64,000 bases of DNA from Escherichia phage vB_EcoM_DalCa. The stretch lies in sequence record NC_054908.1; one strand, written 5' to 3'. The translations under genes were made by a program, and so were the position numbers. The notes beneath the pieces were generated by a model that searched no databases, was not told the origin of the DNA, and was given only the letters and a program-made list of their open reading frames with translations. Below are positions 5,769 through 13,967 of this stretch, piece after piece (the stretch's first letter is position 1; the number at the start of each line of letters is the position of its first letter).

Positions 5769-7319
5769 ATGACTATCAAAACTAAAGCTGAACTTTTGAA
5801 CAAATGGAAGCCATTACTGGAAGGTGAAGGTTTACCGGAAATTGCTAATAGCAAACAAGCGATTATCGCTAAAATCTTTGAAAACCAGGAAAAAGATTTC
5901 CAGACAGCTCCGGAATATAAAGACGAAAAAATTGCTCAGGCATTCGGTTCTTTCTTAACAGAAGCTGAAATCGGTGGTGACCACGGTTACAATGCTACCA
6001 ACATCGCTGCAGGTCAGACTTCTGGAGCAGTAACTCAGATTGGCCCAGCTGTTATGGGTATGGTACGTCGTGCTATTCCTAACCTGATTGCTTTCGATAT
6101 TTGTGGTGTTCAGCCAATGAATAACCCGACTGGCCAGGTATTCGCACTGCGTGCAGTATATGGTAAAGACCCAATCGCTGCTGATGCTAAAGAAGCATTC
6201 CACCCAATGTATGGTCCAGATGCAATGTTCTCTGGTCAGGGTGCTGCTAAGAAATTCCCAGCTCTGGCTGCTAGCACACAAACCAAAGTAGGTGATATCT
6301 ATACTCACTTCTTCCAGGAAACTGGTACTGTATATCTGCAAGCTTCTGCTCAAGTAACAATTAGTTCTACTGCAGATGATGCAGAAATTAAGAAACAAAT
6401 GGAAGCTGGCGCATTGGTAGAAATCGCTGAAGGTATGGCTACTTCTATCGCTGAACTTCAGGAAGGTTTCAACGGTTCTACCGATAACCCATGGAATGAA
6501 ATGGGCTTCCGTATCGATAAACAAGTTATCGAAGCTAAATCTCGTCAGCTGAAAGCTGCTTACTCTATCGAATTAGCACAAGACCTCCGCGCTGTTCACG
6601 GTATGGATGCTGATGCTGAACTGTCTGGTATTCTGGCTACCGAAATTATGCTGGAAATCAACCGCGAAGTTGTTGATTGGATTAACTACTCCGCTCAGGT
6701 TGGTAAATCTGGTATGACCCTGACTCCGGGTTCTAAAGCTGGTGTATTTGACTTCCAGGACCCAATCGATATTCGTGGTGCTCGCTGGGCAGGTGAATCC
6801 TTTAAAGCTCTGTTGTTCCAGATTGACAAAGAAGCAGTTGAAATTGCTCGTCAGACTGGTCGCGGCGAAGGTAACTTCATTATCGCTTCCCGTAACGTAG
6901 TTAACGTTCTGGCTTCAGTTGATACCGGCATTTCTTATGCTGCACAAGGTCTGGCTACTGGCTTTAACACTGATACTACCAAGTCAGTATTTGCTGGTGT
7001 TCTGGGTGGTAAATACCGTGTATATATCGACCAGTATGCTAAACAGGATTATTTCACCGTAGGTTATAAAGGTCCGAACGAAATGGATGCTGGTATTTAC
7101 TATGCTCCATATGTAGCTCTGACTCCGCTGCGTGGTTCTGATCCGAAGAACTTCCAACCGGTAATGGGATTCAAAACTCGTTACGGTATCGGTATCAACC
7201 CATTTGCAGAATCCGCTGCTCAGGCTCCGGCTTCTCGCATCCAGAGCGGTATGCCTTCTATTCTGAATAGCCTTGGTAAAAACGCTTACTTCCGCCGTGT
7301 ATATGTTAAAGGTATCTAA
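5769..7319 (+). CDS. 23: Major capsid protein gp23
   Basis: 516 aa; N- and C-terminal regions match T4 gp23 as I remember it; late promoter inside the 3' end of gene 22. Confidence 0.95.
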   Translation: MTIKTKAELLNKWKPLLEGEGLPEIANSKQAIIAKIFENQEKDFQTAPEYKDEKIAQAFGSFLTEAEIGGDHGYNATNIAAGQTSGAVTQIGPAVMGMVRRAIPNLIAFDICGVQPMNNPTGQVFALRAVYGKDPIAADAKEAFHPMYGPDAMFSGQGAAKKFPALAASTQTKVGDIYTHFFQETGTVYLQASAQVTISSTADDAEIKKQMEAGALVEIAEGMATSIAELQEGFNGSTDNPWNEMGFRIDKQVIEAKSRQLKAAYSIELAQDLRAVHGMDADAELSGILATEIMLEINREVVDWINYSAQVGKSGMTLTPGSKAGVFDFQDPIDIRGARWAGESFKALLFQIDKEAVEIARQTGRGEGNFIIASRNVVNVLASVDTGISYAAQGLATGFNTDTTKSVFAGVLGGKYRVYIDQYAKQDYFTVGYKGPNEMDAGIYYAPYVALTPLRGSDPKNFQPVMGFKTRYGIGINPFAESAAQAPASRIQSGMPSILNSLGKNAYFRRVYVKGI

Positions 7320-7333
7320 TCTTTGACGATTTA

Positions 7334-7366
7334 AGGGACCTTCGGGTCCCTTTAGTTGTTTTTATG
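7334..7366 (+). terminator. Rho-independent terminator after gene 23
   Basis: AGGGACC-ttcg-GGTCCCT followed by a T-rich run. Confidence 0.7.
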
Positions 7367-7367
7367 G

Positions 7368-7375
7368 TATAAATA
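7368..7375 (+). promoter_or_regulatory. Late promoter box TATAAATA for gene 24
   Basis: Exact TATAAATA between the gene 23 terminator and gene 24. Confidence 0.6.
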
Positions 7376-7402
7376 AATCATATAAACTGAAAGGAAAGCG
7401 CA

Positions 7403-8690: not shown

Positions 8691-8716
8691 AAGGGACCTT
8701 TCGGTCCCTTTTTATT
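8691..8716 (+). terminator. Rho-independent terminator after gene 24
   Basis: AAGGGACC-tttc-GGTCCCTT followed by TTTT; overlaps the end of the rnlB continuation on the other strand. Confidence 0.7.
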
Positions 8717-8871
8717 TAACTTACCAATTCAATCCAAGCCGGACGAAGTACATCTTGTACCATTTTAACTAATTCCTTTTTAATCAAAGAAGGATTATCT
8801 GCTTGAGTTAGAGTAATACCTTCACGAGAAGTTTCTTCCAAAATATCTTGAACAGTTAGTCCCATCACCTT
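8716..8871 (-). pseudogene. rnlB: In-frame continuation of rnlB after the TGA: 51 further codons (KVMGLTVQDILEET...AWIELVS)
   Basis: Same frame stays open for 51 codons after the TGA; 282+1+51=334, the length I remember for T4 Rnl2. Confidence 0.6.
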
Positions 8872-9720
8872 TCAAAAATCCTTCGGACCAATTTCACCAA
8901 TTTTAGAAATAACGTTATTTACTCGGTTCAGTGTAACGTAGCAAGCTAAAATTCCCACCAATTTGTTATCAGCTTCTGATAGTTCAACTTTAGCTTTAAT
9001 AGGCTTATCAGACTTTTTCTTTTCACTAAATTTGGAATTCTTGCATTTGATGGCTACACGATTTCCATTATGAAGCCAAGAAGGACAACAAGGTTTCAAT
9101 ACATATCCTTCAGCGGTAAATACTTCGCCTTTGGCTTCAGCTTTCCAAACACATTTGTTAGCGTCAACTAATCCTGCATGGTCTACTGTAAAATTATAAT
9201 CTTGGACGACAGAATCTAAATCATTTGGCAATTTAATAAGCTCTTCAAATTTACCGCGACCTAAAAGTGGAGCCATTTTAAATTTAAATGTATTACAAAA
9301 TGATTCCATCATATAATCATCGACATAAGTCACATCACCACTTTCTGTAGTGACAATAATGTCAAATACATAAAAATCTTTATCGCCATAATCGACATTC
9401 TTCTGAATGCCAGGTCCAGCGAATTCGCCAAAGACTTGATAAGATACAACCGCTGAGGTTTCCATAATATCTTGTACTGCTTTAATAGAATCTTCGTAAT
9501 TCTTTAGAATAATTTCATACCCAAAGAAATCTTCAGCAGGAAGAATTGGTCCAGTACGTTTAGCGCAAGTTACTTTATCACGCTCAATAATCAATGAGAA
9601 ATTTGTGCCGTGAATCTTTTCACGAGCTACCCACTCCCCACCAGTCAATCCCAAGCTATAAAGTTTTTCAATAAATTTAGAGTTGTAATGATTTTCAAGA
9701 CTGCTATACTTTTTAAACAT
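8872..9720 (-). CDS. rnlB: RNA ligase 2 (Rnl2), N-terminal 282 codons ending at an in-frame TGA
   Basis: Motif I lysine at residue 35 (EKIHGTN); position downstream of gene 24 region; ORF stops at TGA 8872-8874. Confidence 0.85.
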
Positions 9721-9729
9721 AATTAATCC

Positions 9730-10008
9730 TCAAAATGTAATTTCTAACCAATCACCATCACGCTGATCACTATTGACTTTAAAGCTGAATCCTTCTTTTC
9801 TCAGCCAATCACCAATTTCTTCAGTAATCAATTTATCACGAGCAATACAATAATAACTAAAATGTGTTTTACCTTGTTCAGCTGCTTTATTAGCAAGTTC
9901 CGAAAAATCTTTAATAAAACATTCTAGTTTAAACTGTTTACTTTTAAGTGCTTTTTCTCGCAATTGATTAGCAAAAGATTCATTTTCATAAAGATCATAC
10001 TGTTCCAT
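9730..10008 (-). CDS. Hypothetical protein (T4 24.2 position)
   Basis: 92 aa ORF in the minus-strand early block between rnlB and hoc. Confidence 0.6.
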   Translation of the reverse strand: MEQYDLYENESFANQLREKALKSKQFKLECFIKDFSELANKAAEQGKTHFSYYCIARDKLITEEIGDWLRKEGFSFKVNSDQRDGDWLEITF

Positions 10009-10210
10009 TTTTCACCTTTTTATTGATATGTCTTTTTCTATAGACGACTTTTTCTCGAGTTTCAAATTTATTCTTAGCAGTCATAGCTCGAGCCCATAAT
10101 ACAGCCACTTCTTTTGCCTGTAAGTTTAATTCACGAGCAATTTCAATGAATGACTTTCCAGACTCATGAAGCGTAAACACCACAACCTCAGTTCTCATAA
10201 TTAATCTCAT
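9995..10210 (-). CDS. Small hypothetical protein with possible helix-turn-helix (T4 24.3 position)
   Basis: 71 aa ORF; GKSFIEIARELNLQAKEV resembles an HTH; overlaps the upstream ORF end. Confidence 0.5.
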   Translation of the reverse strand: MRLIMRTEVVVFTLHESGKSFIEIARELNLQAKEVAVLWARAMTAKNKFETREKVVYRKRHINKKVKNGTV

Positions 10211-10267: not shown

Positions 10268-10294
10268 AAAATGAAGAAAGGGGCCGAAGCCCCT
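10268..10294 (-). terminator. Rho-independent terminator after hoc
   Basis: AGGGGC-ttcg-GCCCCT followed by a T-rich run on the minus strand. Confidence 0.6.
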
Positions 10295-10299
10295 TATGA

Positions 10300-11715
10300 T
10301 TATGGATAGGTATAGATGATACCAGTTTCTAAAGCAGTTTTATGAATGATGTATCCATTACGCGATTCTTGGACATCAACTTCTGGATAGTCTTTAATCA
10401 TCTTCTGAAGAGTGTAACGATGCAGGTAGTATTTACTATCTGGGTCGTCAGTTTTCCAATCTTTACCTTCTTCGGTCATTTTTTGGATTTCATCCATAAC
10501 CCACCAACCGCACCAGATATAAGCTGAAGTACGATGTGGAAGAGGATGAACATAAGGTAGTTCACCTTCTGGTTCAATTGGAGTCCGTTCAGCAATAACA
10601 ACTTCAGCTGTTGAACTAATTGTCTTTGAAGTGTAATTATCTTTAGTTAATACTGCTTCAACTTTAATTGTATGAGTACCCGCTGAGGAGGTATCAATAC
10701 TATAAGTATTAGTAGAATTACTTTCTGCTACGTTGTCTTTCTTCCAAGAGTACACAATATTAGTATCACCAGGAGCACCAGTAACAGATGCTGTTAAAGT
10801 TGCAGTTCCACCAACAGTAGTATTAACTGATGGCGGAGATAAAGAAATGGTGGCACTATTAAATGTCGCATTATTAGTTACTACTGTTGCTTCTGCTGAA
10901 ATTTCTTTTGTAACATAATTTGTTGCAGAAACAGATGCGGTGCATTTAAGAGTTTTACTTCCGACTTCGGTCGGAGTGAATTTATACGTAGCAGAAGTTG
11001 CATCCGGAATATTACTGTCATCCATTGACCATTGGAATGTTATAGTAGCACCTGAAGGTGCACTAGAGACATTTGCAGTTAAAGTAATAGGAACACCAAA
11101 GACTGTAGTCGGAGACTCGGGTGTAATTTTTAGCGTCGAAGAATTAGCCTTTTTATTTACAGTCAAAGAAACCGCTGATGATTCTACTGTTTTATCAACG
11201 TAATCAGTTGCAGTCACTGTGACAGAGCAAGTTATAGACTTAGTTCCTTCAGTTGTTGGTGTATATTCAAAGGTTGATTGCTTTTGACCGTCAACATCGA
11301 CCCCGTCAACTTTCCATGTATAATCAATAGCAGCACCAATAGGTTGATTGCTTACATTAGCAGTGAATGTTGTTGCTGTTCCAATTTCTACTGCCGCAGG
11401 AGAAGCCGGAGTAACAGTGATAGTGGAATTATTTTCTTTCTTATTAACAGTGATAGTTGTTGATGCTTCAGCTATTTCCGGATCTCCTGCGGAAAGTGTA
11501 TTAGTTGCAACCACTTTAATTTTTTTTGTTCCTGCTGGAGAAGCAAGAGTATAATCCATTGTAGCAGCCGTAGAGCCCTGTGTTATATCATCTACAGTCC
11601 AGACGTATGTAATAGTACCGTCTGGGGTTTCACCTGCAGGTGTAGCAGTGAATGTTTGTGAACCTCCAATAACCCCTGTAGGAGTTAGAGGAGATAACGT
11701 GACAGTGAATGCCAT
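10300..11715 (-). CDS. hoc: Highly immunogenic outer capsid protein Hoc, four tandem Ig-like repeats plus C-terminal domain
   Basis: 471 aa; repeated ~95 aa units with T.TA...I.Y.W..D pattern; W-rich C-terminal domain; position next to inh. Confidence 0.85.
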   Translation of the reverse strand: MAFTVTLSPLTPTGVIGGSQTFTATPAGETPDGTITYVWTVDDITQGSTAATMDYTLASPAGTKKIKVVATNTLSAGDPEIAEASTTITVNKKENNSTITVTPASPAAVEIGTATTFTANVSNQPIGAAIDYTWKVDGVDVDGQKQSTFEYTPTTEGTKSITCSVTVTATDYVDKTVESSAVSLTVNKKANSSTLKITPESPTTVFGVPITLTANVSSAPSGATITFQWSMDDSNIPDATSATYKFTPTEVGSKTLKCTASVSATNYVTKEISAEATVVTNNATFNSATISLSPPSVNTTVGGTATLTASVTGAPGDTNIVYSWKKDNVAESNSTNTYSIDTSSAGTHTIKVEAVLTKDNYTSKTISSTAEVVIAERTPIEPEGELPYVHPLPHRTSAYIWCGWWVMDEIQKMTEEGKDWKTDDPDSKYYLHRYTLQKMIKDYPEVDVQESRNGYIIHKTALETGIIYTYP

Positions 11716-11724
11716 AAGTTATCC

Positions 11725-12405
11725 TTATTTTAATGTTATGAAAGAAGAATTACGAGTTTCGCGAATTAGAACTGATCCATCGCGATTAATATAATAAATT
11801 AAGCTAAATAATGTTTGGTGTGCTGACGCATGTTCAAAACTAGTTGGGTGAGATTTCCAATCCGGAGTTTCAGCAATCCATTGATAAATCCACCAAGGAA
11901 CAGTGCAGAATCCTGGATTTTTTCCAATCAGTTGAAGATTCGGACTAAAGTTTTCCGGAAGAGTAAATACAGACGGCTTTTCAGATTCAATAATCTCAGC
12001 TACAGCTTGTTCAAACTTTTCTTCAACAAACGGAGTGTCTTCAATCAAAACTGAGGTATTTTCAGGAATTTTATCCGTTTCTACTACTTCAATTTTAATG
12101 TCAGATTTAACCGGAGAATCAATCAAAAGTGCTGCTTCTGGATTGACTTCTTCATCGTCATATTTTAATCCCTCTGCGGCATCAGCAGCATCAATTAAGT
12201 CTTTAATAGATAACCCATCAGTCTCCGGCATAGGTTCACTAGCGAGCTTCTGGAGGGCTTCTTCAATATCAACAACGATATTATCAAAAGATTTATTCTT
12301 TTTGACCTTTATACCAAACTGTTCAGCATATTCAGCTAATTTAGCTTTAGCTTCTTTGTTATCATCAAGAGCCTTCAGCTCTGCAATATAATCTTTATCT
12401 ATCAT
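11725..12405 (-). CDS. inh: Inh, inhibitor of prohead protease gp21
   Basis: 226 aa, same length as T4 Inh; between hoc and uvsW. Confidence 0.75.
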   Translation of the reverse strand: MIDKDYIAELKALDDNKEAKAKLAEYAEQFGIKVKKNKSFDNIVVDIEEALQKLASEPMPETDGLSIKDLIDAADAAEGLKYDDEEVNPEAALLIDSPVKSDIKIEVVETDKIPENTSVLIEDTPFVEEKFEQAVAEIIESEKPSVFTLPENFSPNLQLIGKNPGFCTVPWWIYQWIAETPDWKSHPTSFEHASAHQTLFSLIYYINRDGSVLIRETRNSSFITLK

Positions 12406-12418
12406 AATATTTCCTCAG

Positions 12419-12426
12419 TATAAATA
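12419..12426 (+). promoter_or_regulatory. Late promoter box TATAAATA for uvsW
   Basis: Exact TATAAATA 30 bp upstream of the uvsW ATG in the divergent inh/uvsW spacer. Confidence 0.55.
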
Positions 12427-12455
12427 TAGATATATTTATTACATGGTATTTAGAC

Positions 12456-13967
12456 ATGACTGACATTAAAGTACATTTTTATGATTTTAGTCACGTGAGA
12501 ATTGATTGTGAAGAAAGTACATTTCATGAACTCCGTGATTTCTTTAGCTTTGAAGCTGATGGGTATCGTTTTAATCCGAAGTACAGATATGGCCACTGGG
12601 ATGGACGAATCCGTCTGTTAGATTATAATCGTCTTCTTCCATTCGGCTTAGTCGGGCAAATTAAAAAGTTCTGCGATAACTTTGGCTATAAAGCCTGGAT
12701 TGACCCACAGATTAACGAAAAAGAAGAATTATCAAGAAAAGATTTTGATGAATGGCTTTCTAAATTAGAAATCTATTCAGGAAATAAAAGAATTGAACCA
12801 CATTGGTATCAAAAAGATGCAGTGTTCGAAGGATTAGTTAATCGTCGTAGAATTCTTAATCTTCCAACATCCGCAGGTAAATCTTTAATTCAAGCTCTGC
12901 TTGCTCGGTATTATTTGGAAAATTATGAAGGCAAAATTCTTATTATTGTTCCAACAACTGCTCTGACAACTCAGATGGCTGATGACTTTGTTGACTATCG
13001 TTTATTCAGTCATGCAATGATAAAGAAAATCGGTGGTGGAGCATCAAAAGATGATAAATATAAAAATGATGCACCAGTCGTTGTTGGTACATGGCAAACT
13101 GTAGTAAAACAACCGAAAGAATGGTTCTCACAGTTTGGAATGATGATGAATGATGAATGCCATCTTGCTACAGGAAAAAGTATTTCATCTATCATATCAG
13201 GTTTAAATAACTGCATGTTCAAATTTGGTCTATCTGGTTCATTACGTGATGGCAAAGCCAATATCATGCAGTATGTTGGAATGTTTGGTGAAATATTTAA
13301 GCCAGTAACGACTTCTAAGTTAATGGAAGATGGACAAGTAACTGAGCTAAAAATTAATAGTATTTTTCTTCGCTATCCCGATGAGTTCACTACTAAATTA
13401 AAGGGAAAAACTTATCAAGAAGAAATAAAAATTATTACGGGGCTTAGTAAAAGAAATAAATGGATCGCTAAATTGGCTATTAAGCTTGCACAAAAAGATG
13501 AAAACGCTTTTGTCATGTTTAAACATGTATCACATGGTAAAGCTATTTTCGATTTAATTAAAAATGAATACGATAAAGTTTATTACGTATCAGGGGAAGT
13601 TGATACCGAAACCCGCAACGTAATGAAAACCTTAGCTGAAAATGGTAAAGGAATAATTATAGTAGCTAGTTATGGTGTATTTTCTACTGGTATTTCAGTT
13701 AAAAATCTGCATCACGTTGTTTTAGCGCACGGTGTTAAATCAAAAATCATTGTATTACAAACAATCGGTCGTGTATTACGTAAGCATGGTTCTAAAACAA
13801 TCGCAACAGTCTGGGACCTCATAGATGACTGTGGTGTCAAGCCAAAATCTGCTAATACTAAAAAGAAATATGTTCACTTGAACTATCTTTTAAAACACGG
13901 CATTGATCGTATTCAGCGCTACGCAGATGAAAAATTTAATTACGTAATGAAAACAGTTAATTTATAA
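12456..13967 (+). CDS. uvsW: UvsW DNA/RNA helicase
   Basis: 503 aa; Walker A-like PTSAGKS, DECH box; TATAAATA about 30 bp upstream. Confidence 0.9.
   Translation: MTDIKVHFYDFSHVRIDCEESTFHELRDFFSFEADGYRFNPKYRYGHWDGRIRLLDYNRLLPFGLVGQIKKFCDNFGYKAWIDPQINEKEELSRKDFDEWLSKLEIYSGNKRIEPHWYQKDAVFEGLVNRRRILNLPTSAGKSLIQALLARYYLENYEGKILIIVPTTALTTQMADDFVDYRLFSHAMIKKIGGGASKDDKYKNDAPVVVGTWQTVVKQPKEWFSQFGMMMNDECHLATGKSISSIISGLNNCMFKFGLSGSLRDGKANIMQYVGMFGEIFKPVTTSKLMEDGQVTELKINSIFLRYPDEFTTKLKGKTYQEEIKIITGLSKRNKWIAKLAIKLAQKDENAFVMFKHVSHGKAIFDLIKNEYDKVYYVSGEVDTETRNVMKTLAENGKGIIIVASYGVFSTGISVKNLHHVVLAHGVKSKIIVLQTIGRVLRKHGSKTIATVWDLIDDCGVKPKSANTKKKYVHLNYLLKHGIDRIQRYADEKFNYVMKTVNL

Follow-up and report, generated by a model that had tools for sequence, protein, structure and literature searches.

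We can be highly confident that the gene at positions 10300..11715, on the minus strand of the 64,000-nucleotide stretch of DNA analysed here (the window), is hoc, from a T4-like phage of the genus Tequatrovirus, and that it is an RB69-type allele encoding four Ig-like domains that arrived as a cassette. The Hoc protein (highly immunogenic outer capsid protein) of the window consists of four Ig-like domains, versus three in T4, followed by a Trp-rich capsid-binding domain. Because an RB69-like patch lies within a T4-like backbone, comparison of the sequences indicates that the four-domain form most likely arrived by allele (cassette) exchange, i.e., by homologous replacement between genera. 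Recombinational mosaicism among T-even phages is well known in general. Among the papers searched, we found none on hoc cassette exchange between Tequatrovirus and Mosigvirus, or on domain-boundary mosaics or duplication in Hoc.

Identity of the gene and architecture of its product

The hoc coding sequence is an intact open reading frame of 471 codons, with an ATG start and a TAA stop at 10300-10302. Its identification as Hoc, made in the earlier note from the DNA letters, was confirmed by matches of the protein to PHROG 1149 ('Hoc-like head decoration', E 9.9e-136) and to the 376-aa T4 Hoc chain 5vf3_Z (E 5.9e-141), as well as by a T4-like neighbourhood. When the open reading frames of the window were compared with the T4 and Paracelsus annotation, the gene order rnlB-24.2-24.3-hoc-inh-uvsW was found to be the same as in T4. 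As judged from the T4, Paracelsus and RB69 annotation, hoc sits between inh and 24.3/rnlB and shares its strand with inh. The latter gene (11725..12405, minus strand), which encodes the prohead protease inhibitor and was assigned from its open reading frame and the T4 and Paracelsus annotation, lies directly upstream of hoc across a 9-nt gap, and uvsW, beyond inh, is on the opposite strand. Downstream of hoc is a homologue of gene 24.3 (9995..10210, minus strand), assigned from its open reading frame, the T4 and Paracelsus annotation and informative sites of the T4 type (T-type).

Several differences from T4 were observed in this neighbourhood. The product of the gene 24.3 homologue has 71 aa in the window and in Paracelsus versus 56 aa in T4, and identity to T4 falls to 66% around 10042-10141, within this gene. 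In rnlB, the gene for RNA ligase 2 (8716..9720, minus strand), an in-frame TGA at approximately 8869-8871 replaces the GGA codon (Gly283) of T4 and Paracelsus. The rnlB open reading frame is consequently 282 aa long and not 334, and the 50 codons past the TGA stay in frame and still match T4 RnlB. T4 carries homing-endonuclease genes between genes 23 and 24 (segD) and between inh and uvsW (segE). Both are absent from the corresponding positions of the window, ~7330-7391 and 12405-12456, respectively, where the alignments to T4 skip positions 522-1312 and 6045-6681 of the T4 locus.

Four successive units of about 95 aa had been described in the earlier note, and each of the four peptide strings quoted there was found, one per unit. 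The units are mutually related beyond chance, with local alignment scores 10-25 sd above those of 500 shuffles and pairwise BLASTP E values that range from 1.6e-22 (domains 2 and 3) to 0.03 (domains 2 and 4). Ig-like domain 1 (aa 1-92; 11440..11715, minus strand) is of the RB69 type and is 61% identical to domain 1 of T4 Hoc, and its beta strands are modelled with pLDDT above 90. Ig-like domain 2 (aa 93-190; 11146..11439, minus strand), likewise of the RB69 type, is 55% identical to T4 domain 2 and matches Pfam PKD, with the best stretch at residues 100-174. The extra domain is Ig-like domain 3 (aa 191-286; 10858..11145, minus strand), which falls in an alignment gap and has no counterpart in T4 Hoc; PKD_3, PKD_4 and Big_3_5 stretches lie within its residues 200-261. 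Ig-like domain 4 (aa 287-381; 10573..10857, minus strand) aligns with T4 domain 3 and shows Ig_3 and I-set matches at 290-360. The remainder is the capsid-binding C-terminal domain (aa 382-471; 10303..10572, minus strand), which is 98% identical to the C-terminal domain of T4 Hoc. This domain is Trp-rich, as previously noted: the final 90 aa of Hoc include 4 Trp and 13 aromatic residues. The whole protein exceeds the gathering scores of Pfam Ig_3, PKD and I-set. The Big_2 family, which had been proposed as a suitable profile, is absent among the 14 Pfam families listed (E up to 1), and Ig_3, PKD, I-set and PKD_3 match instead.

Alignment to T4 Hoc located the additional length. HMMER aligned the two proteins in two blocks, query residues 1-190 to T4 residues 1-190 and query residues 289-471 to T4 residues 194-376, and MAFFT placed a single clean 95-residue gap in T4 Hoc opposite aa 191-286. 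Because of this two-block alignment, the 95-aa length difference is assigned to one whole domain and not to linker. The size of about 376 aa and the three Ig-like domains given for T4 Hoc in the earlier note agree with the alignment, which puts T4 one domain short; the window Hoc has one extra Ig-like domain and not the same domain count with expanded linkers. An AlphaFold2 model based on 25 homologues contains four all-beta units, each a beta sandwich, with a shared strand pattern, with pLDDT of approximately 85-96 over residues 1-375 and approximately 85-95 in the extra domain. Expansion of a linker in place of a domain was ruled out by the block alignment and this model. When the model was compared with the PDB by Foldseek, the top matches were four-Ig fragments of Dscam1, Sidekick-2 and ICAM-5 D1-D4, with more than 400 columns aligned, and domains 1-3 of RB49 Hoc (3shs) were matched as well.

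The C-terminal domain is modelled with low confidence (pLDDT below 50 for residues 379-405 and 444-471), and the model was not used there. Because the model is poor in this region, the assignment of the C-terminal fold rests on identity to the solved T4 domain; the domain is homologous to T4 Hoc residues 281-376. The region 407-471 matches PHROG 21694, and an ESRNG motif is present at 450-454. According to a published survey (PMC10385173), this Glu-Ser-Arg-Asn-Gly stretch is a conserved part of the Hoc capsid-binding domain.

The RB69-like patch and its distribution

In a 100-nt identity profile, the Ig-coding region of hoc shows 54-77% identity to T4, with the gap in addition, and 93-99% to RB69. 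For the flanks in the window (24.3, inh and uvsW), the values are 96-100% for T4 and 50-80% for RB69. Sites that distinguish T4 from RB69 are T-type up to ~10400-10500, of the RB69 type (R-type) up to ~11800 and T-type again thereafter. These comparisons delimit an RB69-like (Mosigvirus-type) recombinant patch of ~1.3 kb at 10500..11800, with approximate breakpoints at ~10400-10550 and ~11800. On the basis of the switches from T-type to R-type and back, one breakpoint was placed within the conserved part of hoc that codes for the C-terminal domain and the other at the 3' end of inh, in its last 80-100 nt or so. Typing of the domains gave the order A_69-B_69-C_69-D_69-Ct, i.e., all four RB69-type domains in their RB69 order.

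RB69 hoc is 96.1% identical to the window gene at the DNA level, over 1416 nt without gaps, with 55 nucleotide and 17 amino acid differences. It also encodes 471 aa (NP_861884) and carries the annotation 'hoc' in AY303349 and NC_004928. The RB69 protein is like that of the window in length, in its four Ig-like domains and C-terminal domain, in its position between inh and 24.3 and in its pI of 4.72, the figure published for RB69 Hoc (PMC10385173). It differs in its setting, since the backbone of the window is T4-like and the gene thus sits in another genus. A 471-aa Hoc with four Ig-like domains is therefore already known, having been public since the RB69 deposit (AY303349) and being annotated in several phages.

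Copies of hoc that are 100% identical at the DNA level were found by megablast in the Escherichia phages Paracelsus (Bas36, of the BASEL collection), vB_Eco_F26 and HEMP5 and in Yersinia phage PYps35T, whose hoc genes thus show no difference from that of the window, and copies at 99.5-99.9% DNA identity were found in five more phages. Paracelsus is classified as a Tequatrovirus, and for the other phages with hoc copies at 99.5% or higher, identity to the T4-like first 25 kb of the window is 97.5-98.3%. Over these 25 kb, Paracelsus, PYps35T and HEMP5 match the window at 97.7-98.3%; none of these genomes is identical there, the best reaching 98.3%. The six checked hoc copies with 95.6-98.4% identity all belong to Mosigvirus (RB69, NRG-P0074, LNA2, 348Ecol098PP, ESh27 and a20). 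Of the 664 matching phage records, 29 contained the extra-domain type at 90% identity or higher, and all others fell below 60%.

In the exchange that we propose, homologous recombination would have involved crossovers in the region coding for the C-terminal domain and in the 3' end of inh. The extra domain is an old paralogue of the domain-2 type, carried within a ~1.3 kb cassette that the window lineage and Mosigvirus phages such as RB69 have in common. The greater diversity of this allele in Mosigvirus hints that this genus may have been the donor.

Some Mosigvirus records annotate hoc in two or three fragments (NRG-P0074 301-1717, a20 520-1935 and OLB35 301-1431). These are frameshifted, truncated or mis-sequenced copies of the RB69-type allele, which fits the dispensability of Hoc.

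Ig-like domain number and the origin of the extra domain

That Hoc homologues differ in how many Ig-like domains they carry, from 1 to 10, is established knowledge. The published survey describes 650 Hoc homologues built on the plan of an anchor and a string of Ig-like domains, from one such domain in phage PG7 to ten in Muldoon, and RB69 Hoc is among the proteins that it aligns and tabulates by pI (PMC10385173); the Hoc of ΦPNJ-9 is a two-Ig variant (PMC11853027). We typed each unit of ~95 aa in the best 120 cluster representatives against the T4 and RB69 domains. Hoc lengths among these representatives were discrete, at 375-379, 468-472 and 567-570 aa, and the relatives carry 3, 4 or 5 Ig-like domains (376, 471-472 and 567-570 aa, respectively). 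The T4-type arrangement of D1-D2-D3-anchor was found in 79 of the best 120 representatives, two copies of T4-type domain 2 in 29 and three copies in 8.

The RB69-type arrangement of the window allele and mosaics of T4-type and RB69-type domains were also present. In the five-Ig, 567-aa form of P0002 and phage CCU7 (L009 49-1752), T4 D1-D2 is joined at 'SLTVNKK' to RB69 D2-D3-D4 and the anchor. The 376-aa form P0011 consists of RB69 D1-D2 followed by the last Ig domain of T4, the 472-aa form P0013 combines T4 D1-D2, RB69 D2 and T4 D3, and the 379-aa form P0004 is without domain 1. The switch point in all mosaics is the conserved domain end 'SLTVNKK'.

These shorter forms bear on the possibility that the four-domain arrangement is ancestral and that a deletion at a domain boundary removed the third domain from the T4-type Hoc, a history under which 'gain' would be a misnomer but the allele exchange would still hold. 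In its favour, P0011 joins RB69-type D1-D2 directly to the T4-type last Ig domain in a 376-aa protein, P0004 does without a domain-1 type, and the published two-Ig variant lacks domain 3 (PMC11853027). However, the extra-domain type is rare among the 664 matching records, with none in the range of 60-90% identity besides the 29 at 90% or higher, and three-Ig forms dominate among the cluster representatives. We consider this history rather unlikely, though it deserves some weight.

A scenario in which this phage lineage recently duplicated an Ig-like domain in tandem would agree with the length of Hoc, which surpasses that of T4 Hoc by exactly one domain unit (95 aa), and with the genuine and rather recent duplications of T4-type domain 2 in other alleles (472 aa and 568 aa), which have two or three copies of the domain-2 type, each 81-86% identical to T4 domain 2. 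However, Tandem Repeats Finder (minimum score 30) detected no DNA-level repeat within hoc, and seed extension returned only short, chance-like matches of 60-88% and no direct repeat. A recent duplication that left a DNA-level repeat was ruled out by these empty searches. Furthermore, the closest paralogue of the extra domain, domain 2 (E 1.6e-22), is just 40% identical to it, and the other domains are 33-36% identical to it, the identity between Ig-like domains across Hoc being 29-40%. RB69 possesses the same four-domain gene at 96% DNA identity, and the flanks point to acquisition of the whole Ig-coding region rather than of one unit. A recent duplication in this lineage is thus highly improbable. 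Given an identity of only ~40% to this paralogue and the lack of a DNA-level repeat, the duplication behind the extra domain is old. The 'domain gain' suggested in the earlier note stands insofar as Hoc has one domain more than its T4 counterpart, but the gain was neither in this lineage nor recent, given the RB69-type allele, the distant paralogue and the missing DNA repeat.

That the extra length is an artefact of misassembly, read-through, pseudogene formation or linker expansion, for which the split or frameshifted hoc of NRG-P0074, a20 and OLB35 might be cited, can be practically dismissed, as the intact open reading frame is identical in four independently sequenced phages, and residues 191-286 share the strand pattern of the other units at the pLDDT given above and themselves match Ig/PKD-type profiles.

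Arrival of the old four-domain allele by cassette exchange, which we prefer over these alternatives, raises a broader and more tentative idea. The mosaic pattern behind hoc domain shuffling is shown by the forms described above. It is possible, though we would not yet favour it, that the Ig-coding part of hoc in Tequatrovirus and Mosigvirus is an exchangeable shuffling cassette, in which whole alleles move between genera by recombination in the C-terminal-domain region and inh and single domains are added, dropped or swapped at 'SLTVNKK'; this would be a diversification mechanism, perhaps undescribed and perhaps adaptive, for a capsid-surface adhesin. If true, such shuffling would yield fibres of three, four and five domains as well as T4/RB69 mosaics, comparable to the swapping of tail-fibre adhesins. 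The inter-genus exchange and the boundary mosaics together show a capsid surface diversifying on a fixed anchor. The same plan, a conserved anchor with a variable Ig string, is found in the 472-aa and 568-570-aa forms and in the Hoc proteins of CCU7/P0002, ΦPNJ-9 and Muldoon. The 472-aa and 568-aa forms differ from the window allele in that they lengthen by repetition of T4-type domain 2, whereas the window allele has a distinct extra-domain type that they lack.

Predicted fibre properties and transcription signals

T4 Hoc binds as one monomer at the centre of each gp23* hexamer, with 155 copies per T4 head, and is dispensable for growth. The Hoc of the window would likewise be a monomeric capsid-decoration fibre, with a string of four Ig-like domains projecting from the head in place of the three in T4. 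Because its C-terminal domain is near-identical to that of T4, binding at the gp23* hexamer centre is expected, and by homology to the T4 anchor one Hoc would be anchored at the centre of each hexamer. Extrapolated from the 180 Å of the T4 fibre, a fibre with one more Ig domain would measure ~220 Å if linear.

The adhesive role of the fibre can be anticipated from work on its relatives. The Ig-like domains of Hoc from T4, RB49, ΦPNJ-6 and ΦPNJ-9 are described in two publications as mediating adhesion to mucin glycans or bacterial surfaces (PMC10385173, PMC11853027). By analogy with T4, the window Hoc may provide weak, reversible adhesion to such glycans or surfaces. Residue D341, in domain 4, aligns with T4 D246, which is altered in the mucus-adaptive D246N change, and is invariant in 25 homologues. 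Hoc is acidic, with a pI of 4.72, and could thus, as suggested by studies of T4, give the capsid a dispersing surface through electrostatic effects.

T4 Hoc (NP_049793; PDB 5vf3 chain Z, 8t1x and others; 376 aa) is homologous to the window protein over its whole length, and the two are alike in gene order, in acidity and in the conservation of T4 D246 as D341. They differ in that T4 Hoc has three Ig-like domains and the window Hoc has an extra one between T4 domains 2 and 3, and in that the Ig-like domains of the window are merely 55-61% identical to domains 1 and 2 of T4. The discovery value of the four-domain Hoc is small, and its practical use is modest. For studies of Hoc antigen display or mucus adherence with Paracelsus/Bas36, PYps35T or ES19/ES21, the fibre is one Ig-like domain longer than that of T4. 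Users of antigen display would work with Ig-like domains that are ~55-61% identical to those of T4 and with an anchor that, judging from its sequence, should be interchangeable with the T4 anchor.

A strong hairpin resembling an intrinsic terminator, AAGGGGC-TTCG-GCCCCTT followed by a T-rich tail, was identified by a terminator scan and in the sequence itself at 10278..10295 on the minus strand, 4 nt past the hoc stop codon. Phages NBG2 and NRG-P0074 have an annotated terminator at the corresponding position. The minus strand has no late promoter TATAAATA immediately before hoc, nor any between hoc and 14472. The hoc gene is probably co-transcribed with inh.

None of the TATAAATA sites in the window lies directly upstream of hoc or inh on the minus strand. 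This T4 late-promoter motif occurs 18 times in the whole window, versus 8 ± 3 occurrences expected, and examples include the sites at 7368-7375, upstream of gene 24, and at 12419-12426, upstream of uvsW.
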